NCBI RefSeq assembly: GCF_034680285.1
Contig: NZ_JAXITC010000002.1
Location: forward strand, 139,633-203,632
Direction: 5' to 3'
Origin: Limnohabitans sp.
GTDB lineage: Bacteria > Pseudomonadota > Gammaproteobacteria > Burkholderiales > Burkholderiaceae_C
DNA: 64,000 nt
Each line of letters starts with the position of its first letter. Within the stretch, counting starts at the first letter, position 1. The position numbers and the translations under genes are program-made. The notes under the pieces were generated by a model. The model worked only from the letters and a program-made list of their open reading frames with translations. It was not told where the DNA came from and did not search any database. Positions 1-9,323 of the stretch are shown one piece after another.

Positions 1-904
1 CCCAGGTGCGCAGGAGGCCGATGCAGTCGATCACCTTGAGCCACAGCGGAAACGACAACGCCCCCGCCGCGAAATACAAACCCAAGAACAGTGGCTCCAT
101 GGCCTTGGGCGCTTGCAAAAGGTCTTGCACAAAAAACAGCACCAGCGTGGCAGGCACGGCGCTGGCCAGACCGTTGAGCATGAACACCATCAAAAGGCGG
201 CGAAAACCCGCGTGCTGCCAAGGCTGCCATAGACTGCCAACTGCATGGGCATGGGCATCGCCATGCGGCACCGTCACAGCAGATGGGAAGGCGCGGCGTG
301 CAACGCGCTGCCAAGTGAACAAGCCCAGCGCCAGCATGGCGACCAACAAAACCGTGGTCAATGGCCAACCCCACAGCGCGGGCAAAGCCGATGCCAACAA
401 CACACCCACCAGCGCAAAGCCTTCACGCCAAGCAACCCAGCGACTTTGCACCATGGCGCCACCGCCCTGACGCGCAGCCCAAGCCTGGTGCAAGATACCC
501 AAACCGCTGTAGGCCAAATGGCTGAGTGTGAGCGCGGCGCCCACCCACACCAATAAGCCCGAAGGCGACAAGGATGCAGCAGGCGGGAAAAACAAGGCCG
601 CAAAACCCAACGCCACGGCCAACGCCAAGAACACCGCCGTCAGCCACACGGCCCGCCACGAGTGACGGTAAAGGCTGTCGCCCCAACGCCCAAGCCACGG
701 ATCCACCACCGCGTCCACGGTCCGGCCGATCAGCAACACCCCCCCCAGAGCGGCTAACGGCACGCCGTACTGGTGGGCGTACAAATTGGGCAAATGCACA
801 TACACAGGCAGCGCCACAAAGGCCAGCGGTAAGCCCAGCAAGCCATATGAAGCGAAGGCTTGGCTTGGTGCTGTAGTGCTAATGACTTGGGTCACAGCAC
901 TCAT
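1..904 (-). CDS. MFS transporter (GPH/MFS_2-like), 3' end truncated by window start
   Basis: Not in the ORF track. Manual translation from ATG 904 gives MSAVTQVISTTAPSQAFASYGLLGLPLAFVALPVYVHLPNLYAHQYGVPLAALGGVLLIGRTVDAVVDPWLG, a typical MFS N-terminus. The ATG overlaps the upstream TGA (ATGA, 901-904). Confidence 0.85.
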   Translation of the reverse strand, partial: MSAVTQVISTTAPSQAFASYGLLGLPLAFVALPVYVHLPNLYAHQYGVPLAALGGVLLIGRTVDAVVDPWLGRWGDSLYRHSWRAVWLTAVFLALAVALGFAALFFPPAASLSPSGLLVWVGAALTLSHLAYSGLGILHQAWAARQGGGAMVQSRWVAWREGFALVGVLLASALPALWGWPLTTVLLVAMLALGLFTWQRVARRAFPSAVTVPHGDAHAHAVGSLWQPWQHAGFRRLLMVFMLNGLASAVPATLVLFFVQDLLQAPKAMEPLFLGLYFAAGALSFPLWLKVIDCIGLLRTW

Positions 905-1533
905 GGCTGCAAGCCTTGCAAGAGCTGGGCGCGCATTTTGGGCTCAGAGGTGCGTTCGTCGAGCCAGATGCCAAAAAACAAGCGCGCAAAGGCCACGTCC
1001 TTGACCGTCCCCACGCGCTGGCCGTTGACCCAAAACTCGGCACCAACACCTGGCAGGTTCACGCCCGTGATGCGCTCGCCCGCTGACACATTGGGGAATA
1101 TTTCTCGCATGGCTGTTTGCCAGTTTTGCACTTGCGCCTCGCTGAGGCTGGCCACACGCCGCATTTCTTCGATCGAGCGGCTGGCAATCGCGGCCCCTTC
1201 GATCCTGCGAAGGTACTGCAACTCCAGTGCGAATGGGAACTGAACAGCTTGCCCGTACCGAAAGCCAACCGGCGTCCAAAGGCGGGCGTCGTACACCTCA
1301 AAACCCCAGACCCGCAAGCGCACGGGTGGGGTGGGCACGACCCCCTTCAGAGCGGCCACTTCGGGTCGACTGAACTCAGCGTTGAGCGCGTGATCCTTGG
1401 CTTGCGTCTGTGCCTGTGCATGGCTGAAAAGAGCGAGAAACATCCAACCACTGACGATGAGCGCCACGCAATTTGCTGGAGACACAAACTGCCTGCAGCG
1501 CTTGGCTTGCATCGTTTTCAGAGGTTTTTGCAT
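901..1533 (-). CDS. Chalcone isomerase-like (CHI-fold) exported protein
   Basis: ORF 901..1650; likely start 1533 (1512 possible). Signal-like segment, then RVWGFEVYDARLW, FALELQY-R, IFPNVSAGERITG and FARLFFGIWLDERTSEPKMR, as in bacterial CHI-like proteins. Confidence 0.8.
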   Translation of the reverse strand: MQKPLKTMQAKRCRQFVSPANCVALIVSGWMFLALFSHAQAQTQAKDHALNAEFSRPEVAALKGVVPTPPVRLRVWGFEVYDARLWTPVGFRYGQAVQFPFALELQYLRRIEGAAIASRSIEEMRRVASLSEAQVQNWQTAMREIFPNVSAGERITGVNLPGVGAEFWVNGQRVGTVKDVAFARLFFGIWLDERTSEPKMRAQLLQGLQP

Positions 1534-1540
1534 GTTCTGG

Positions 1541-2815
1541 TCAGCCGGGTTTGGCCAAAGTGAACTGCACCACGTCGATGTTGGCCTCATCGAACGCGGC
1601 TTCGCAATACGCCAAATAAAAGGACCACAAACGGATGAAGCGGTCGTCAAATTTCAGCATGCGCACGGTATCGAGTTGGGACATGAAGCTTTCGCGCCAG
1701 CGGCGCAGGGTTTCGGCGTAGTCGGGGCCGAAGTTCAATTCATCAACCACCTGCAAGCCTGCCGCCTGAGCCTGCTTGCGAAACTCACTGGGGCTTGGCA
1801 AACAGCCACCCGGAAAAATGTACTGCTGAATGAAATCGGTCGATTGCAAGTAACGCTCAAAAAAGCGGTCGTCAATCGTGATGCTCTGCACGCACGCGCG
1901 GCCACCGGGCTTGAGCATGCGGCTGATGGTTTGAAAATAAGTCGGCCAATATTCCTGGCCCACCGCCTCGATCATCTCGATGGAGCAGACCGCGTCGTAG
2001 GGCCCATCGTCGATGTCGCGGTAGTCTTGCAAGCGCAAATCCGCGCGTTGTTGCACGCCGTGCGATTGCATGCGGGCGTTGGCAAACGCCAGCTGCTCGG
2101 TGGACAAGGTCACGCCCGTGATGTGCGCCCCAAACTCGGTGGTGGCCGCTTCGGCCAAAGCGCCCCAGCCGCAGCCAATCTCCAGCACGCGGTCACCTGG
2201 CTTGGCGTTGACCATACGCAGGGCGCGGCGCACCTTGGCTTTTTGGGCCTCCGCCATGTCTTTCGTGTGGTCGCCTTCAAACCAGGCCGACGAATAGTTC
2301 ATCGTACCGTCCAGCCACAGCTCGTAAAAGGCGTTACCCAAGTCGTAATGGGCGTGGATGTTTTTGCGGCTGTTGCTGCGGTTGTTGCGGTTGAGCAGAT
2401 GCTTGATGCGGTAAAACAATCGCCCCAACCAGTGGCCATAAATGGCGCTCTCGATGTGGTCGCGGTTGGCAATCGTCAAGCGCAGCAAGGCTGCCAAATC
2501 CGGCGTGGTCCAGTCGCCAGCCATATAGCCCTCGGCAAAACCAATGTCGCCCGATTTGAGGACCTCGGCACACATGTCCCAGCGGTGGATGTGCAGGGCC
2601 GCAAACGGAGCCTCGTGCGTGCCAAAGACTTGGAGGTTGCCGTCGGGCGCATGCACCGTGAGCTTGCCGATTTTCAGACGGGTCAAGAGGCTGAGCAAAC
2701 GCACGGCGGCTTTGGGAAGGCTGGCATGCGAAATGGTGGTGGCGCGTGGGCCCAAGGTTTGGGCAGAGTCGGCTGTCTTCATGGTGGGTGGCATCCGGTG
2801 GGGTCCAGTGTTCAT
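1541..2815 (-). CDS. cfa: Cyclopropane-fatty-acyl-phospholipid synthase family SAM methyltransferase (UfaM-like)
   Basis: Motifs NIHAHYDLGN, SAM-binding VLEIGCGWG, SIEMIEAVG, FIQQYIFPGG. ATG 2815 overlaps the DUF1365 stop. Confidence 0.92.
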   Translation of the reverse strand: MNTGPHRMPPTMKTADSAQTLGPRATTISHASLPKAAVRLLSLLTRLKIGKLTVHAPDGNLQVFGTHEAPFAALHIHRWDMCAEVLKSGDIGFAEGYMAGDWTTPDLAALLRLTIANRDHIESAIYGHWLGRLFYRIKHLLNRNNRSNSRKNIHAHYDLGNAFYELWLDGTMNYSSAWFEGDHTKDMAEAQKAKVRRALRMVNAKPGDRVLEIGCGWGALAEAATTEFGAHITGVTLSTEQLAFANARMQSHGVQQRADLRLQDYRDIDDGPYDAVCSIEMIEAVGQEYWPTYFQTISRMLKPGGRACVQSITIDDRFFERYLQSTDFIQQYIFPGGCLPSPSEFRKQAQAAGLQVVDELNFGPDYAETLRRWRESFMSQLDTVRMLKFDDRFIRLWSFYLAYCEAAFDEANIDVVQFTLAKPG

Positions 2816-3588
2816 CGGGTCACAAAATCGCGGGGCGGTTCGGGCTTGTGCCAAAACGGTACTTTTTTCAGCCACAGCAGCAAGGCGTGCCAATGGATGC
2901 GGGCCACCACCCCCAAGGTCAGCAGCGGAAATCGCCACACCACGCGGCGCAAGGCCGTTGAGGTGGCGGGTTCGAGCACACCGCTCCAACTGGTGTCAAT
3001 CAAGGGGCCATCGGCATCGCCATGGTCCACACGCGCCACGATGCGGTCTTGCCCGCCGTGCGTCACGCGCATGAAGCGAAAGCGGTACTCGCCTTGCACA
3101 TCACAAAAAGGTGAAACGTGGAAAACCTTGTGCGCCAGCATGGTTTGACCATATTGAGGCTCGGGCAAGAGGTAGCAATGGCGCTCGCCAAAGGTGTTGT
3201 TCACCTCCGCCACGATGGCGGCCAGCCGACCATCGGCGCGGTGCACATACCAAAAACTCACAGGTTTAAAGGCGTGGCCCAGCACACGGGGGAAAGCCTG
3301 CAGCCAAACTTCGCCCGTGGCGTCTTCAATCCCTTCACGCTGTAGCAACTCATCGAGCCAGGCCAGTGCGCCGCCAGTCTCGACGGGCCGACCATCGCCG
3401 TGATCGGCGTCATGAAAGGCAAACCAAGCGCGGCGGTTGATGGCCAATGCCGTGGTGCAGTTACCCGCTTGCATGCTGCGCATGGGCAACATCAAAAACG
3501 CTGTCGGGTACGCAAAGGCATGGTGCGCAGGGCGGTGGCGTGTGTGCCGCACCTGGCCCCAACCGATGAGCGCAGTGGCAGGCTTCAT
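2812..3588 (-). CDS. DUF1365 family protein (UfaO-like)
   Basis: Motifs GQVRHTR-RP, FKPVSFWY, EVNNTFGERHCY, KVFHVSPF, IHWHAL-LWLK. Start 3588 overlaps the upstream stop. Confidence 0.9.
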   Translation of the reverse strand: MKPATALIGWGQVRHTRHRPAHHAFAYPTAFLMLPMRSMQAGNCTTALAINRRAWFAFHDADHGDGRPVETGGALAWLDELLQREGIEDATGEVWLQAFPRVLGHAFKPVSFWYVHRADGRLAAIVAEVNNTFGERHCYLLPEPQYGQTMLAHKVFHVSPFCDVQGEYRFRFMRVTHGGQDRIVARVDHGDADGPLIDTSWSGVLEPATSTALRRVVWRFPLLTLGVVARIHWHALLLWLKKVPFWHKPEPPRDFVTR

Positions 3589-4928
3589 GCAACCCACTTG
3601 TCGTGCGACGATTTGCTCTGATCACCGATCAGCTGAAGCAAAGACCGGCCCACTTGCAGGCCAGACTTCAGGCCGTCTTCGTGGAAGCCATAACCTGTCC
3701 AAGCCCCTGCGTACCAAGTGTGCTGCTGGCCTTGCAACAGAGGCAAGCGCTTTTGCGCTTCGATGGCGGCCAAGTCAAACACCGGGTGGGCGTAGTCGTA
3801 TTCACCCACGATGGTGGCCGGATCGATGTCTTGCAGCGGGTTGAGCGAAACCACCACGGGCTGTGCAAATGGGATGCGTTGCAAACGGTTGAGCAAGTAA
3901 TGCAGGCACACCCGCGAGGACTCGCGCTCGCTGCTGGCCGCACGCTCATAGTTCCAAGCAGCCCAAGTCTTGGGCTGGGCAGGCAACACGCTGGCATCGG
4001 TGTGCAGCACGGCGCGGTTTTCTTGGTAGCGGATGGCACCCAGCAAACTGCGCTCATAAGTGCTGGCCTCACGGAGCATGCCGAGTGCCTGGTCGGTGTG
4101 GGTGGCAATGACCACTTGGTCAAAGCGCTCTGCATGCCCATCGGTGACGATGCGCACGCCTTGTGCGTCGCGCTCAATCAAGCGCACAGGCGTGTTCAGG
4201 CGTTTGTCGTGCACGCCTGCCAAAATTTTCTCGACGTAGTTTCGAGCACCGCCCACCACGCTGAACCACTGGGGGCGGTTCGTCACCTGAATGAGGCCGT
4301 GGTTGTGACAGAACCGGATCATGGTCGCGACCGGGAACTGCAGCATCTGATCGGTTGGGCAACTCCAGATGCAGCCGAGCATGGGCAAAAAATACCAATC
4401 GCGAAACGGCTCGCTGAACTTGTGCGTGCGCAAAAAGTCTGCGAGTGGCTGCTGCAGCTCTGTTTCTCGCTGCTCTTTGGCAATGCGGGTGCACAGTGCA
4501 TTGAAACGCATCACATCAGCCAACATGCGCCAAAACCGTGGGTTGACCAAGTTGCTGCGTTGCGCGAACACGCTGTTCAGGTCGGTGCCGCTCCACTCCA
4601 AAGTGCGGCCGTTCAGAGCGCCCGGCACCTTGACCGAAAACGACATGTCAGACGGCGCAGTCTCGACATTTAGGTCGGCGAACAGGTTGATGAGGTTGGG
4701 GTAGGTGCGTTCATTGAAAACCAAAAAGCCGGTGTCCACACCGTGCGTGACCATGCCTTGCGGCGTGGGCAGGGTGATGTCCACCGTGTGGGTGTGGCCG
4801 CCAAAGTAGTCTCCAGCCTCAAACACGGTGATGTCGGCATGGTATTTCAAGGTATGGGCCACGGCCAAGCCGGAAATACCCGAACCCACAATCGCCAGTT
4901 TCATGCGCGGCTTGCTTGTCGCGCTCAT
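3585..4928 (-). CDS. FAD-dependent oxidoreductase, amine-oxidase family (UfaD-like desaturase)
   Basis: Rossmann motif IVGSGISG, plus GGHTHTV, VDTGFLVFNERTYPNL and GYGFHEDG, typical of cfa-cluster oxidoreductases. Confidence 0.9.
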   Translation of the reverse strand: MSATSKPRMKLAIVGSGISGLAVAHTLKYHADITVFEAGDYFGGHTHTVDITLPTPQGMVTHGVDTGFLVFNERTYPNLINLFADLNVETAPSDMSFSVKVPGALNGRTLEWSGTDLNSVFAQRSNLVNPRFWRMLADVMRFNALCTRIAKEQRETELQQPLADFLRTHKFSEPFRDWYFLPMLGCIWSCPTDQMLQFPVATMIRFCHNHGLIQVTNRPQWFSVVGGARNYVEKILAGVHDKRLNTPVRLIERDAQGVRIVTDGHAERFDQVVIATHTDQALGMLREASTYERSLLGAIRYQENRAVLHTDASVLPAQPKTWAAWNYERAASSERESSRVCLHYLLNRLQRIPFAQPVVVSLNPLQDIDPATIVGEYDYAHPVFDLAAIEAQKRLPLLQGQQHTWYAGAWTGYGFHEDGLKSGLQVGRSLLQLIGDQSKSSHDKWVA

Positions 4929-5524
4929 GGCTGGGCTTTCAAGGCTTTGTCGATGGCCGACAACAGCGTTTTGCTTTCCGGCCCAGTCATGCTGCTGTAC
5001 TGGTCAATGACCTTGCCGTCACGGCCAATCAGGTATTTGTGAAAGTTCCAGCGCGGCTTTTGCCCTGTTTGTGCGGTCAACTGTTTGAACAGAGGCGCAG
5101 CGCCATCGCCTGTGACCTGTGTTTTGGTGAACATGGGGAATTTCACGCCAAAGGTACTCTCGCAAAAGTCAGCGATCTCTTTGTTGCTGCCTTTCTCCTG
5201 TGCAAAGTCATTCGAGGGAAAGCCCAAAACAACCAAGCCCTTGTCTTTGTATTGGCCACTCAGCGTCTCCAAGCCCTTGTATTGCGAGGTGAAGCCACAA
5301 AAGCTGGCGGTGTTGACCACCAAAACCACTTTGCCCGCGTATTGGCACAAAGACTGCGGCTTTTCGTCCTGCAGACGGTCAAACGTGTGGTTCAAGAGCG
5401 CGGGGCACGTGGCTGTCGGGCTGGCGGCTTGAGCCATCTGCACAAGCAAACCGAGCACTGCTGCCAAGATGACCCAAGCCAAGCGGCTGACCCAAGGATT
5501 GACTCGTAAGTTATTCATTTGCAC
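4925..5524 (-). CDS. Glutathione peroxidase (Cys type) with N-terminal signal peptide
   Basis: Motifs VLVVNTASFCGFT, VLGFPSNDF, PRWNFHKYLIGRDG; hydrophobic leader ending AQA. Confidence 0.9.
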   Translation of the reverse strand: MQMNNLRVNPWVSRLAWVILAAVLGLLVQMAQAASPTATCPALLNHTFDRLQDEKPQSLCQYAGKVVLVVNTASFCGFTSQYKGLETLSGQYKDKGLVVLGFPSNDFAQEKGSNKEIADFCESTFGVKFPMFTKTQVTGDGAAPLFKQLTAQTGQKPRWNFHKYLIGRDGKVIDQYSSMTGPESKTLLSAIDKALKAQP

Positions 5525-5548
5525 TTAAAAACCTATTTTGTGACTGAT

Positions 5549-5560
5549 GAGTTTAAACTC
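5549..5560. promoter_or_regulatory. Perfect palindrome GAGTTTAAACTC in divergent promoter (candidate operator)
   Basis: 12-bp perfect inverted repeat in the 82-bp gap between the peroxidase and DUF2256 starts. Flanked by GTGAC (5540-5544) and GTCAC (5574-5578). Confidence 0.4.
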
Positions 5561-5606: not shown

Positions 5607-5789
5607 ATGACCAAACCCTCAGGTTTCAAAGGGAACAAACAGGATTTGCCCCAAAAACCCTGTCTGGTTTGCGGCCGTCCCATGAGTTGGCGAAAAAGCT
5701 GGGCCAAGAACTGGGACCAGGTTTTGTACTGCAGCGACCGCTGCCGAGCCGCCAAAAACAAAGCACCCGTGACGAAAGTGCCCGCATGA
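5607..5789 (+). CDS. DUF2256 family small Cys protein
   Basis: MTKPSGFKGNKQDLPQKPCLVCGRPMSWRKSWAKNWDQVLYCSDRCR; AAGGAAAG RBS upstream. Confidence 0.88.
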   Translation: MTKPSGFKGNKQDLPQKPCLVCGRPMSWRKSWAKNWDQVLYCSDRCRAAKNKAPVTKVPA

Positions 5790-7324
5790 CCCGCCACCTG
5801 ATATTGGTCCTGGGTGACCAGCTGGGCTGGGACAACCCCGCACTGGACGACTTTGACCCAAGCCAAGACCGTTTGTTGCTGATCGAAGCCGACAGTGAAG
5901 CGCAGGAGGTCTGGAACCACAAAACCCGCATTGCCTTGTTTTTGTCAGGCATGCGCCACTTTGCCAACGAAGCACACCGCCGCTGCAGGCCCTGCACCTA
6001 CTTGAAGCTGGACGACAGCGAGCTGCCCATCGACTTTGCAGGACGCTTGGCCCATGCGCTGCACACGCACGCCCCCCAAGCCTTGGTGGTCATGGAGGTC
6101 GGGGCCTGGCGCATGGAGCGGCTGATTGAAGACGCCGCCGAACAGGCGCAGACACTGCTGCGCTGGGTGGCTGACACCCACTTTTTGTGCAGCCGAGCCG
6201 CGTTTGCCAAATGGGCGGGCGACAAAAAAGAGCTGCGCATGGAGTTCTTTTACCGCGAGATGCGCAAGCGCCACGGGATCCTGATGGAGGGCAAAGAGCC
6301 GATTGGCGGCCAATGGAACTACGACGCCGAAAACCGCAAAGGCTTTGGTGCCAAAGGCCCCGGCACCGTGCCGCCGCCCGCCCGCTTTGCGCCAGACCGC
6401 GTGACGCAAGACGTGATCGACATGGTCAACACACGTTTTGCAGAGCACCCCGGCACGCTGGACCACTTTGCCTGGCCCGTGACGCGCGAAGACGCGTTGG
6501 TGGCGCTGCAACACTTCATTGACCAGCGATTAGAGAACTTTGGCGCCTGGCAAGACGCGATGTGGACCACGCTGCCCTTTGGCTGGCACGCCCTGGTGGG
6601 CAGCAGCCTGAACCTGCACTTGCTCAACCCACGCGAAGTGGTAGCGGCGGCCGAGCAGGCTTATCACGCACGCGGCCTGCCGCTGGCCAGCGTGGAAGGC
6701 TTCATCCGCCAAGTGCTGGGCTGGCGCGAGTTCATCCGCGGTGTTTATTGGCTAGACATGCCCCACCTGGCCGAGGCCAACCACTATGGCCACACCCGCG
6801 ACCTGCCCAAGTGGTACTGGACAGGCAACACCCACATGACCTGCATGCAAGCGACCATCGGCCAGACCCTGCAACACGGTTACGCGCACCACATCCAGCG
6901 GCTCATGGTCACGGGACAATTTGCGGTGTTGGCAGGGCTATCACCGCAGCAAGTCAGCGCCTGGTACCGCGCCATGTACGTGGACGCGGTGGAGTGGGTG
7001 GAAACGCCGAACACGCTTGGCATGGCCCTGCACGCCAACGGCGGGCGCTTCACCAGCAAGCCTTATGTGGCCAGCGGCCAATATGTGAGCCGCATGAGCA
7101 ACTACTGCAAAGGCTGCCGCTACCAACCCGAGGTGCGCACAGGCCCCAGCGCCTGCCCCATGACCACGCTGTATTGGGACTTTTTGATCCTCCACGAAAA
7201 AGACTTTGCCGGCAACCCGCGCACCGCGCTCATGGTGAAGCATGTGGGCCGCATGAGCGAGGAAGACAAAGCCCAGATACGGACCCAGGCCGATGCCACT
7301 CGGGCAGGGCTGGACAGCGTCTGA
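5786..7324 (+). CDS. Cryptochrome/photolyase, FeS-BCP (PhrB/CryB-like (6-4) photolyase) class
   Basis: Starts MTRHLILVLGDQL. Contains LRMEFFYREMRK, GGQWNYDAENRK, YAHHIQRLM and C-terminal Cys ligands (MTCM, NYCKGCRY, ACP). ATGA overlap with DUF2256. Confidence 0.9.
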   Translation: MTRHLILVLGDQLGWDNPALDDFDPSQDRLLLIEADSEAQEVWNHKTRIALFLSGMRHFANEAHRRCRPCTYLKLDDSELPIDFAGRLAHALHTHAPQALVVMEVGAWRMERLIEDAAEQAQTLLRWVADTHFLCSRAAFAKWAGDKKELRMEFFYREMRKRHGILMEGKEPIGGQWNYDAENRKGFGAKGPGTVPPPARFAPDRVTQDVIDMVNTRFAEHPGTLDHFAWPVTREDALVALQHFIDQRLENFGAWQDAMWTTLPFGWHALVGSSLNLHLLNPREVVAAAEQAYHARGLPLASVEGFIRQVLGWREFIRGVYWLDMPHLAEANHYGHTRDLPKWYWTGNTHMTCMQATIGQTLQHGYAHHIQRLMVTGQFAVLAGLSPQQVSAWYRAMYVDAVEWVETPNTLGMALHANGGRFTSKPYVASGQYVSRMSNYCKGCRYQPEVRTGPSACPMTTLYWDFLILHEKDFAGNPRTALMVKHVGRMSEEDKAQIRTQADATRAGLDSV

Positions 7325-7334
7325 GACGCCACGG

Positions 7335-8231
7335 TCATTTGCGCCGACTGATTTGTTGGAGCACATGCTGCTTGAAGGCCAGCGCCAGCGGTGAGAGTTT
7401 TTTGCCCGCTGGGTAGACGATGTGCCAGGCTGAGGGCAGGGGAAAGCCCTGCACATCGATCACGCTGACGCCGTTTTCTTTTTGGTGGCCATGCAGAGCG
7501 TGGCGTGACACCACGCCGACGCCCAATCCACCCGCCACCGATTCCTTGATGGCCTCGTTGCTGCCCAGCTCCAGCCGCACATCGGGGCGGAACTTCATCT
7601 GGCGGAAAAACTGGTCGCCTGCCATGCGTGTGCCCGAGCCTTTTTCGCGAAAGATGAAGCGACGCTGCACCAACTCATTCAAAGGCACGGCGCTACGTTT
7701 GGCCAAAGGGTCGGACGTAGAGGCGATGACCACAATCGGGTTGGGCATGAAGGCCTCGTCGCCCAAGTCCATGTCTTTGGGTGGCATGGACATGATGTAG
7801 AGGTCATCGCGGTTGTCACGCAGACGCTGCACCACCCCGTCGCGGTTCAGGATTTCGAGCGACACATCAATCGCCGGATGCCGCTTGCAAAAGCTGCCGA
7901 TCAGGTGCGGCATGAAGTACTTGGCCGTACTCACCACGGCCACCCGCAGCTTGCCACGCGACAAGCCCTTCGCTGCATCCACGTTTTGCTCAAAAGCATC
8001 CCAGGTCTGTGCCACCGCTCGGGCTGTTTGCGCCAACTCCTGTCCCACCTGGGTCAGGTAAAGCTTTTTGCCCACCAGTTCGTACAAAGGCAAGCCCACG
8101 GCCCCAGCCATGTCCTTGAGTTGCATCGAGGCCGTGGGCTGAGTCACATGCATCACTTTGGCCGCTGCACTCACACTGCCAGTTTCAGCCAGTGCCAAGA
8201 ACAAGCGCAGTTGTCGAAAGGTGATGTTCAT
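7335..8231 (-). CDS. LysR family regulator, CbbR/CmpR-like
   Basis: HTH MNITFRQLRLFLALAETGSVSAAAKVMHVTQPTASMQLK; VSTAKYFMP, REKGSGTR and SNEAIKESV are CbbR-like motifs. Confidence 0.85.
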   Translation of the reverse strand: MNITFRQLRLFLALAETGSVSAAAKVMHVTQPTASMQLKDMAGAVGLPLYELVGKKLYLTQVGQELAQTARAVAQTWDAFEQNVDAAKGLSRGKLRVAVVSTAKYFMPHLIGSFCKRHPAIDVSLEILNRDGVVQRLRDNRDDLYIMSMPPKDMDLGDEAFMPNPIVVIASTSDPLAKRSAVPLNELVQRRFIFREKGSGTRMAGDQFFRQMKFRPDVRLELGSNEAIKESVAGGLGVGVVSRHALHGHQKENGVSVIDVQGFPLPSAWHIVYPAGKKLSPLALAFKQHVLQQISRRK

Positions 8232-8250
8232 AGATTTTTATCTATAGTCA
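8230..8250. promoter_or_regulatory. LysR (CbbR-type) binding site
   Basis: Inverted repeat ATAGA-N6-TCTAT (8230-8245) and TTA-N7-TCA (8238-8250, matching TNA-N7-TNA) abut the LysR start codon. Confidence 0.5.
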
Positions 8251-8315
8251 AACGCATAAGAATCGATTTTACAAGCAGCACGGCAATTTTTATGATCAAA
8301 GCAAGGAACCACACC

Positions 8316-9323
8316 ATGCAAAATCTGATCGACCCCGCCATCCTCTTTTTCATTTTTGGCGTGCTGGCGGGCACCGTCAAATCGAACCTCGAAATTCCGC
8401 CCGCCATCTCTCGCTTCCTTTCTCTCTACCTGCTAATGGCCCTGGGTCTCAAGGGTGGTTTTGCGTTGTCGCAATCAGGCCTGACTGCGACCGTGGGCAT
8501 CAGTCTGGCCGCCGCCGTGACGCTGGCCATCGTCATTCCTCTCATTGGCTACACCGTGTTGCGTCGGTTTGTATCGGGCTTTGACGCAGCGGCTGTCGCG
8601 GCCACTTATGGTTCGGTCAGCGCCGTGAACTTTGTCACAGCGGTGCAAACGCTAGAGAACCAAGGCGTGCCTTATGGCGGCCACATGGCCGCGGCCATGG
8701 CCCTGATGGAATCACCCGCCATCATCCTGGCTGTGGTGTTGGCCAATTCGCTGCGGCAAAAAACGGCCTCGCAGGTCGTGGTGCAAGCGGGTGGAGCGGC
8801 CGTTCTGGGTGGGCCCATATCGCCTGCTGGCAGCTCTGTCGGCAAAATTCTTCACGAGTCTTTCACCGATGGTGCGCAGTTGCTGCTGCTGGGCGCGATG
8901 GTCATCGGTCTGATCACGGGCGAGGCTGGCAAAGAAGCGATGGCGCCCTTCTCAGTGGACCTGTTCAAAGGCATGCTGGCCTTCTTTTTGCTCGACATGG
9001 GCTTGATGGCGGCACGCAACCTGCCGCAAGTCAAGGGCCAGTCGCCCGTGTTGATCGCCTATGCGGTGATCGGCCCCCTGGTGCACGCAGGCCTAGCCCT
9101 GGGTCTGGCCATGCTCTTGAAACTGAGTCCGGGTGACGGGGCCTTGCTGATGGTGCTGGCGGCCAGCGCGTCTTACATCGCCGTGCCCGCCGTGCTGCGC
9201 ACCGCCTTGCCTGAAGCCAAACCTGCGCTCTATTTTGGGCTGAGCCTGGGGCTGACCTTTCCCTTTAACATTGTGCTGGGGATCCCGGTTTATTTGGCTG
9301 TGGCGCAGTCCGTTCTGACCTGA
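8316..9323 (+). CDS. Sodium-dependent bicarbonate transport family permease (SbtA-like, DUF897)
   Basis: MQNLIDPAILFF, LSLYLLMALGLKGG, ATYGSVSAVNF, LMESPAI, ASASYIAVPA, TFPFNIVLGIP; RBS AAGGAA before ATG 8316. Confidence 0.88.
   Translation: MQNLIDPAILFFIFGVLAGTVKSNLEIPPAISRFLSLYLLMALGLKGGFALSQSGLTATVGISLAAAVTLAIVIPLIGYTVLRRFVSGFDAAAVAATYGSVSAVNFVTAVQTLENQGVPYGGHMAAAMALMESPAIILAVVLANSLRQKTASQVVVQAGGAAVLGGPISPAGSSVGKILHESFTDGAQLLLLGAMVIGLITGEAGKEAMAPFSVDLFKGMLAFFLLDMGLMAARNLPQVKGQSPVLIAYAVIGPLVHAGLALGLAMLLKLSPGDGALLMVLAASASYIAVPAVLRTALPEAKPALYFGLSLGLTFPFNIVLGIPVYLAVAQSVLT

Follow-up and report, generated by a model that had tools for sequence, protein, structure and literature searches.

A probable nine-gene Burkholderiales form of the furan-fatty-acid (Ufa) operon in a Limnohabitans genome and its accessory genes

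We analyzed a stretch of 64,000 nucleotides (nt) from a Limnohabitans genome (the window; G000:C2:139633-203632, G000 being the genome), which begins within a set of co-oriented genes related to the synthesis of furan fatty acids. Judged by sequence, window positions 1-5518 most probably hold genes one to six of a translationally coupled operon of nine genes, which is the form that the furan-fatty-acid (Ufa) operon takes in Burkholderiales. The operon is thus not a new system but the ordinary Burkholderiales version of a gene cluster that has already been described. As membrane antioxidants, furan fatty acids are of interest to both industry and physiology; of the genes in the conserved operon, only three have a known job. 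What looks like an extra transporter in this operon is the long-known and unexplained RSP1089, whose nearest solved relatives are lysolipid symporters, and two exported small-molecule-binding folds, one like chalcone isomerase (CHI) and one of the calycin type, travel with RSP1089-type transporters of the major facilitator superfamily (MFS) in many Proteobacteria. Our results on these accessory proteins lead to a concrete hypothesis for the dispensable half of the operon. Their practical value is limited, since the arrangement is common in Burkholderiales and would not surprise specialists in photo-oxidative stress controlled by sigmaE or LitR. The features of the locus are the following (bit scores refer to Pfam families; aa, amino acids).

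4925..5518, minus strand: gpx, predicted exported glutathione peroxidase of the Cys type, first gene of the operon (PF00255, GSHPx, 107 bits).
3585..4928, minus strand: ufaD orthologue, predicted FAD-dependent, amine-oxidase-like fatty acyl desaturase, 447 aa (PF01593 and PF13450).
2812..3588, minus strand: ufaO orthologue, DUF1365 protein, 258 aa (PF07103, 256 bits).
1541..2815, minus strand: ufaM orthologue, predicted CMAS-family SAM-dependent fatty acyl methylase, 424 aa (PF02353, 294 bits).
901..1533, minus strand: predicted exported CHI-fold protein of a divergent PF16036 subfamily, 210 aa (PF16036, Chalcone_3, 46 bits).
1..904, minus strand: MFS_2 transporter, RSP1089 orthologue, first 301 of 446 codons (PF13347, 126 bits for the full protein).
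5543..5552, minus strand: near-palindrome ACTCATCAGT 25-34 nt upstream of the start codon (ATG) of gpx, a candidate operator or promoter element.
5786..7324, plus strand: divergent gene for an FeS-BCP-type (6-4) photolyase or CryB-like protein, 512 aa (PF04244, 250 bits).

Read on the minus strand, the six genes of the window are co-oriented in the order gpx, FAD oxidase, DUF1365, CMAS, CHI-like and MFS, and their junctions are tight. The gpx stop and the FAD-oxidase start share an ATGA at 4928-4925, ATGA overlaps also join FAD oxidase to DUF1365 (3588-3585) and DUF1365 to CMAS (2815-2812), the CMAS stop (1543-1541) is followed after a 7-nt gap by the ATG of the CHI-like gene at 1533, and the CHI-like stop shares the ATGA at 904-901 with the MFS start. 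A first-pass annotation of this DNA had placed all four overlaps and the gap correctly, and the six gene families that it named are all borne out by Pfam matches. Its description of a six-gene unit did not hold, as the flanking sequence shows nine genes. The window start falls inside the MFS gene, which runs 436 nt further to G000:C2:139196 and has a full-length product of 446 aa, and three more co-oriented genes lie downstream in the genome; the window edge therefore cuts the operon, leaving six of its nine genes visible. The complete order is gpx, ufaD, ufaO (DUF1365), ufaM (CMAS), CHI-like, MFS, DUF3833, SDR (short-chain dehydrogenase/reductase) and SnoaL-like. A gap of about 34 nt separates MFS from a DUF3833 start (ATG) that has a ribosome-binding site, the DUF3833 stop and the SDR ATG overlap as TGATG, and the SnoaL_2 gene begins 20 nt after SDR on the same strand. 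The operon is closed by a convergent GST gene, with purB beyond it.

The enzymes that make furan fatty acids are known from Rhodobacter sphaeroides. UfaM (RSP2144, a CMAS-family methylase) methylates the cis-vaccenoyl chains of phospholipids to 11Me-12t-18:1, UfaD (RSP1091, an FAD enzyme) desaturates this product to 11Me-10t,12t-18:2, and UfaO (RSP1090, a DUF1365 protein) closes the furan ring using O2, which yields 9M5-FuFA, a compound that is sacrificed in scavenging singlet oxygen and radicals (PMC7380195). The sigmaE-ChrR regulon of R. sphaeroides includes the genes RSP1091-1087 (ufaD, ufaO, RSP1089, RSP1088 and RSP1087) and RSP2143-2144 (phrB and ufaM) (PMC7380195, PMC3546557). Our reference genome was that of Cereibacter johrii JA192, a close relative of R. 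sphaeroides and the nearest in the named collection (97% CryB identity), which was found via the R. sphaeroides CryB sequence taken from the PDB alignment to the photolyase-like gene of the window. The single DUF1365 gene of C. johrii sits in a five-gene operon whose third to fifth genes measure 1206, 561 and 738 bp, exactly as published for RSP1089, RSP1088 and RSP1087 (PMC7380195), and its single CMAS gene adjoins a CPD photolyase gene, as RSP2144 lies beside RSP2143.

When the whole of G000 was searched with the six C. johrii proteins equivalent to RSP1091, 1090, 1089, 1088, 1087 and 2144, the best match always lay in the operon described here. Identities are 38-42% for UfaD, 37% for UfaO, 45% for UfaM, 38% for MFS, 35% for DUF3833 and 38% for SDR. 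Reverse searches of C. johrii with UfaD and MFS returned the same genes as sole matches, so that these pairs are reciprocal best hits, and the match of UfaD to the RSP1091-type gene covers its full length. The product of ufaD, a single-copy gene in G000, matches Amino_oxidase (PF01593, 58 bits) as well as NAD_binding_8 (PF13450), and DUF1365 and CMAS are each encoded once in both genomes. A PDB search with the DUF1365 protein as a single sequence gave nothing significant. By these comparisons the FAD oxidase, DUF1365 and CMAS proteins are the orthologues of UfaD, UfaO and UfaM, which upholds the identities that had been proposed for them, with C. johrii standing in for R. sphaeroides. By orthology, the core trio would convert acyl chains of phospholipids to methylated, diene and furan forms.

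In order to describe the variation of the locus we drew 121 Burkholderiales genomes evenly, 46 of which encode DUF1365, and analyzed 45 of the loci by mapping gene families with tblastn. The set of ufaD, ufaO and ufaM is present in all 45 clusters (ufaD was seen in 44, the exception being a contig end). A CMAS gene next to ufaD and ufaO could still be an ordinary cyclopropane fatty acid synthase, in which case the cluster would modify lipids without ending in a furan ring. The CMAS gene of the operon is the sole copy in the genome and would have to be the source of any cyclopropanation, and its closest solved relatives by sequence are cyclopropane synthases. However, its product falls below the cut-offs of the NCBIfam Cfa equivalogs, scoring 259.7 vs 400 bits for the E. 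coli-type model (NF008686) and 288 bits against a cut-off of 600 for the Brucella-type model, and it is closer to the C. johrii UfaM orthologue (45% identity, 358 bits) than to E. coli Cfa (33%, 173 bits). A tree of 50 CMAS genes taken from Ufa clusters of Burkholderiales places the UfaM orthologue inside the clade of in-cluster genes with a support of 98, and both E. coli Cfa and a second group of paralogues fall outside it. The first-pass annotation had regarded a grouping of the proteins away from Ufa orthologues as the outcome that would speak against it; the CMAS protein falls with UfaM and not with E. coli Cfa. The CMAS gene also adjoins ufaD and ufaO in 45/45 clusters, as the proven ufaM does in R. 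palustris (PMC7380195). We consider the cyclopropane explanation highly improbable, and the protein is predicted to act as a UfaM-type methylase rather than as a cyclopropane synthase.

The second group in the tree comes from some Burkholderiales Ufa clusters (L097, L098, L099, L105 and L126) in which a divergent CMAS paralogue lies 1-3.5 kb upstream of ufaD. These paralogues form a clade of their own, their clusters are without CHI, MFS and DUF3833 genes, and they could be FufM-like or other lipid methylases.

The transporter had been presented as an addition to the Ufa genes. In C. johrii the MFS protein has as its reciprocal best hit an MFS protein of 401 aa encoded between ufaO and DUF3833, the third gene of the RSP1091-1087-type operon, and this equivalent of RSP1089 matches MFS_2 with 170 bits. 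The window transporter is therefore, on sequence grounds, the RSP1089 orthologue, an old and conserved member of the classic sigmaE-dependent operon, and this removes the central claim of novelty of the first-pass annotation. RSP1089 had also been considered as a second CFA-like gene because of its length of 402 codons; this is ruled out by the MFS_2 gene at that place in the C. johrii locus. The two genes that follow have the same history, DUF3833 being the equivalent of RSP1088 and SDR that of RSP1087, with both best matches in the operon. All three orthologues are co-oriented downstream of ufaO, and their families and order are identical in the two operons. RSP1089, RSP1088 and RSP1087 have each been deleted in-frame in R. 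sphaeroides, and furan and methylated fatty acids were unchanged (PMC7380195). By analogy, MFS, DUF3833 and SDR appear to be old operon members that are dispensable for synthesis.

A single-sequence PDB search with the MFS protein gave nothing significant; a profile of the RSP1089 family (15 members) was informative. Its best match is to the MFSD2A lysophosphatidylcholine symporters, which are sodium-dependent (PDB 7OIX, 7MJS and 7N98; E 7e-30, 107 bits), and MelB follows with 78 bits. The protein carries the D-x-x-x-D motif of the cation site in TM2 and the conserved Lys of the GPH/MFSD2A branch (MFS_2). Its residues D64, D68 and K374 are invariant in the 15 family members and align with MFSD2A D93, D97 and K436, which we take to be cation-site residues that are critical for transport. 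The motif R-x-x-D-x-x-x-D-P is also conserved in the family, as in MFSD2A. In bit score the family prefers MFSD2A over MelB, and lysolipid transport is a putative function.

The names carried by the closest homologues of the CHI-like protein place the organism within Limnohabitans. The protein matches PF16036 with 46 bits (cut-off 27), and both single-sequence and profile searches of the PDB with it gave nothing significant; here the fold search was informative. Its AlphaFold2 model has a pLDDT of 86.6, and the top 50 Foldseek matches in the PDB are all CHI-fold proteins (CHI, the CHI-like protein CHIL, the fatty-acid-binding protein FAP, and Aim18p). Matches to CHIL, CHI and AtFAP1 have E values of 5e-8 to 1e-6, and the model superposes on the CHI-fold fatty-acid-binding proteins FAP1 and FAP3 of Arabidopsis (PDB 4DOO and 4DOL) with E values of 1e-6 to 2e-5, the fold being common to them at a sequence identity of about 10-13%. 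The N-terminus is signal-like with an AQA cleavage motif, and an RR motif in 22/41 homologues is suggestive of Tat export. In the subfamily, residues Y81, Y107, R109 and R201 show little or no variation, and fatty-acid binding through an Arg/Tyr tether of the FAP kind is putative. Model, Foldseek matches and N-terminus together support the chalcone-isomerase/FAP fold and the signal peptide that had been assigned to this protein.

In Burkholderiales PF16036 proteins form two groups. The high-scoring group (110-195 bits) is unlinked to DUF1365, and the low-scoring group (25-70 bits), to which the window protein belongs, is encoded nearly always about 1.3 kb downstream of DUF1365. For the low-scoring subfamily we made a profile out of a search with about 1,200 clusters at E <= 1e-10, and used it to call the subfamily at >= 70 bits in 401 sampled Pseudomonadota genomes. 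It occurs in 59 of these genomes, 52 of which encode DUF1365, against a background of 121/401 (Fisher odds ratio 29, p = 5e-24). Of the matches, 24 come directly after DUF1365 on the same strand and a further 11 are within 12 kb, and the linked matches include genomes of other Pseudomonadota classes. The CHI-like protein is thus a widespread and specific, but facultative, accessory of Ufa clusters.

The other accessory genes were counted in the 45 Burkholderiales clusters if they lay on the same strand and within 9.5 kb; because seven loci end at contig edges, the resulting counts are lower bounds: at least 31 clusters have SDR, 28 MFS, 27 DUF3833, 27 SnoaL, 26 CHI and 10 gpx. The CHI-like gene lies directly after ufaM in 26/45 clusters, and gpx lies upstream of ufaD in 10/45. 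The modal order is D-O-M-CHI-MFS-DUF3833-SDR-SnoaL, so that the arrangement is a common one in Burkholderiales and not a peculiarity of this genome. A genome of the same genus has the identical nine-gene order, with protein identities of 53-87%, CHI being the least conserved. Frequent Burkholderiales additions to the operon are the CHI-fold protein and the gpx product, both exported by prediction, and the SnoaL-like protein.

These data bear on the explanation offered by the first-pass annotation, in which the CHI and MFS genes are lineage-specific additions to a six-gene unit and provide a new transport step, the export or movement of the furan fatty acid or of a precursor. The CHI-like protein is indeed exported by prediction and has the fold of plant fatty-acid-binding proteins, lysolipid symporters are the nearest relatives of the MFS family, an ATGA overlap couples the two genes translationally, and our literature search gave no paper that relates a protein of the chalcone-isomerase type to bacterial furan fatty acids. 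However, MFS is present in the alphaproteobacterial RSP1091-1087-type operon, which lacks a CHI gene, and must therefore be ancestral and independent of CHI. Clusters with CHI and without MFS exist, as do clusters with MFS and without CHI (e.g., L120, L118 and L137), and the unit has nine genes. A transporter that moves a product or precursor needed for synthesis is also at odds with the deletion of RSP1089, which leaves 9M5-FuFA and its precursors unaltered (PMC7380195). We regard this explanation as unlikely.

The DUF3833 protein (234 bits to its family) has an RR motif and a lipobox (LASC), the latter present in 27/27 relatives listed. Its model (pLDDT 90.7) is a ten-stranded barrel that matches the calycins crustacyanin, nitrophorins, nitrobindin, FABP-like Ycf58 and ApoD, so that it models as a calycin-barrel lipoprotein. 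Export also appears to apply to the gene that leads the operon: the gpx product, 197 aa from the ATG at 5518 (GTG at 5524 had been used before), has an N-terminus (MNNLRVNPWVSRLAWVILAAVLGLLVQMAQA/ASPT) that resembles a signal peptide, and an active-site motif, NTASFCGFT, of the Cys type.

The folds of the two putative binding proteins raise the possibility that they bind tetrapyrroles, that is, haem or porphyrin photosensitizers, and so remove a source of singlet oxygen from the envelope. Among the Foldseek matches of the CHI-like model is Aim18p of yeast (8EW8), a CHI-domain protein that binds haem, and the DUF3833 model matches nitrobindin and nitrophorins, which are haem-binding calycins. 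In Shewanella, moreover, a ferrochelatase paralogue is transcribed together with the periplasmic peroxidase that depends on RpoE2 (PMC4336711). On the other hand, the top fold matches are to the non-haem proteins CHIL, CHI and FAP and also to lipocalins and FABP-like proteins, no haem-ligating residue was identified in the CHI-fold and calycin proteins, and the partner MFS resembles lipid and sugar symporters, not porphyrin transporters. Tetrapyrrole binding is in our judgment improbable.

We examined the control of the operon in light of the regulators known for its relatives. A ChrR-type anti-sigma/ECF sigma pair was not found in the genome, where the PF12973 (cupin_7) matches are stand-alone and have no sigma neighbor, and a genome-wide search for the sigmaE/RpoE2-type promoter TGATC-N16-18-CGTA found none near the operon or in the gpx upstream region; sigmaE/RpoE2 control was rejected on these grounds. 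No LitR gene is adjacent to the operon, and no TGTACA-N12-TGTACA operator occurs in the window. Control of the operon is therefore not via sigmaE-ChrR or an adjacent LitR. There was no sigma70-like promoter in the gene bodies scanned (L002 11900-20000), a scan that stops before the gpx upstream region, and terminator-like matches over these gene bodies were at background level. A leader RNA before the operon was rejected, as there is no Rfam match and the fold z-score is -0.84.

The near-palindrome upstream of gpx conforms to ACTSATSAGT. Three of the four exact sites in G000 lie upstream of peroxidase genes, namely gpx-ufa, ahpC-ahpF and a Bcp-type peroxiredoxin gene (bcp); sites other than that before gpx include G000:C1:39822 (L166) and G000:C1:71925 (L167). 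The palindrome is kept at the same position before gpx in the same-genus genome, and before ufaD in two genomes of the same family. It is not an OxyR box, as its spacing does not fit ATAG-N7-CTAT, nor an IscR box, as the true IscR box upstream of iscR differs in sequence. As a lead, the shared palindrome suggests that the operon may be linked to a peroxide-stress regulon by a common oxidative-stress regulator.

Before ufaD, related Comamonadaceae have other arrangements: some carry a CU-rich leader together with a divergent MerR gene of the LitR-like kind, others a divergent TetR gene. In the former, the CU-rich CTCCTCCTCCCTCCCTCCCT lies in an untranslated gap of 340-370 nt before ufaD (L112 ~7700-8050, L146 ~6330-6670, L144 upstream of 6706) and is paired with the divergent LitR/CarH-like MerR gene (LRVWERRYGFP). 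This leader gap is nonexistent in the window because gpx and ufaD overlap. As for the latter, a TetR gene at G000:C2:205597-206220, about 2 kb past the right end of the window, encodes a protein 56% identical to the TetR divergent from ufaD in L145 and L147. It was rejected as regulator of the operon, being 60 kb away with no ACTSATSAGT beside it. A further light-related cluster, outside the window at G000:C4:80701-86000 (L169), contains a gene for an Rrf2-family regulator, a divergent gene for a 333-aa MerR-family protein, a small open reading frame (ORF) and photolyase-family genes; it is possibly a light regulon of the LitR-like kind, which could in addition influence the ufa operon in trans.

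Freshwater metatranscriptome contigs with 90-99% identity cover all six window genes. Some of them cross the gpx/ufaD, ufaM/CHI and CHI/MFS junctions, and one crosses the entire gpx-photolyase intergenic region. These contigs are consistent with the operon being expressed and co-transcribed in nature.

Taken with the core enzymes, the accessory genes can be placed in a scheme in which their products would act after synthesis, in the envelope. Such a role is suggested because the gpx, CHI-like and DUF3833 proteins are exported by prediction, two of them have folds that hold hydrophobic ligands, the MFS protein resembles lysolipid symporters and the three deletion-tested accessory genes are unneeded for synthesis. 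In this scheme the peroxidase would reduce hydroperoxides, the periplasmic ligands of the CHI-fold and calycin-barrel proteins would be hydrophobic, the cation-coupled MFS, similar to MFSD2A, would move a lyso- or oxidized lipid across the inner membrane, and the SDR and SnoaL-like proteins would process oxidized products. A more specific version, which we put forward only tentatively, is that the CHI-fold protein, the MFSD2A-like transporter and the calycin lipoprotein form a dedicated envelope route for furan or oxidized phospholipids, serving either lysolipid salvage or delivery to the outer membrane. The lysolipids salvaged would be those left once oxidized furan chains are removed. The periplasmic peroxidase, SDR and SnoaL would detoxify the oxidized products, and the unit would possibly be wired to the ahpCF/bcp peroxide regulon via ACTSATSAGT, not to light or singlet-oxygen sensors. 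Such a route, if it exists, would explain why the accessory genes are conserved yet dispensable for synthesis.

Several points weigh against our interpretation of the locus. The furan product of this organism is predicted from orthologues of 35-45% identity, and a sister species, C. johrii, stands in for R. sphaeroides. The lack of a fatty-acid phenotype in the RSP1087-1089 deletions makes the roles of the accessory genes guesses, the putative lipid-transport role of the MFS protein included. The equivalents of MFSD2A D93, D97 and K436 are also kept in the sugar symporter MelB, so that they indicate cation coupling and not a lipid substrate. The four exact ACTSATSAGT sites in the genome compare with about 6-7 expected from base composition, a count not above expectation, so that only their placement is striking. 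Lastly, the RNA contigs are assembled and unstranded, come from related strains and could include DNA carry-over.

The operon can be compared with described systems. With R. sphaeroides it shares the family order UfaD, UfaO, MFS_2, DUF3833 and SDR and six mutual or unique best matches, and in both the Ufa genes are linked to a photolyase-family gene. Unlike the R. sphaeroides genes, those of the window operon include ufaM, with a CHI gene between ufaM and MFS; the operon begins with gpx and ends with a SnoaL-like gene, and the genome is without an rpoE-chrR pair and a sigmaE-type promoter. In R. palustris the core genes are contiguous (RPA2571-2569; PMC7380195), and by the published description this is the same contiguous arrangement and order as here, whereas the window's operon has six further genes. 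Pseudomonas mendocina and P. putida have a light-inducible nine-gene operon (PME6650-PME6610) with phrB, SDR, FAD oxidoreductase, ufaM and hypothetical genes, which is repressed by a class II LitR with a LOV photoreceptor (PMC9758184). The window operon resembles it in being polycistronic, with overlapping start and stop codons and with Ufa genes, SDR and a photolyase-family neighbor, and differs in having neither an adjacent LitR gene nor the TGTACA-N12-TGTACA operator. The RpoE2-ChrR regulon of Shewanella oneidensis contains PgpD, a glutathione peroxidase of the periplasm, as well as the operon SO_3386-3374 (PMC4336711). Common to both is an exported glutathione peroxidase, which in Shewanella is co-regulated with cfa-like, photolyase and DPRP genes; in the window the peroxidase is instead joined to the Ufa operon by an ATGA overlap, and no RpoE2-type promoter is present.

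The photolyase-like gene that is divergent from gpx encodes a relative of Agrobacterium tumefaciens PhrB (4DJA, E about 1e-144) and of R. sphaeroides CryB (3ZXS, E about 6e-141). Its start is the ATG at 5786, and a 601-aa ORF that begins with the TTG at 5519 is an over-extension. Adjacency of this gene to the operon was discarded as a conserved feature, being found in only 4/45 clusters and absent in the same-genus genome. Beyond it, at window positions 7335-9323, the gene of a LysR-family regulator, apparently unrelated to the ufa operon, is divergent from that of an SbtA-like (PF05982) transporter.

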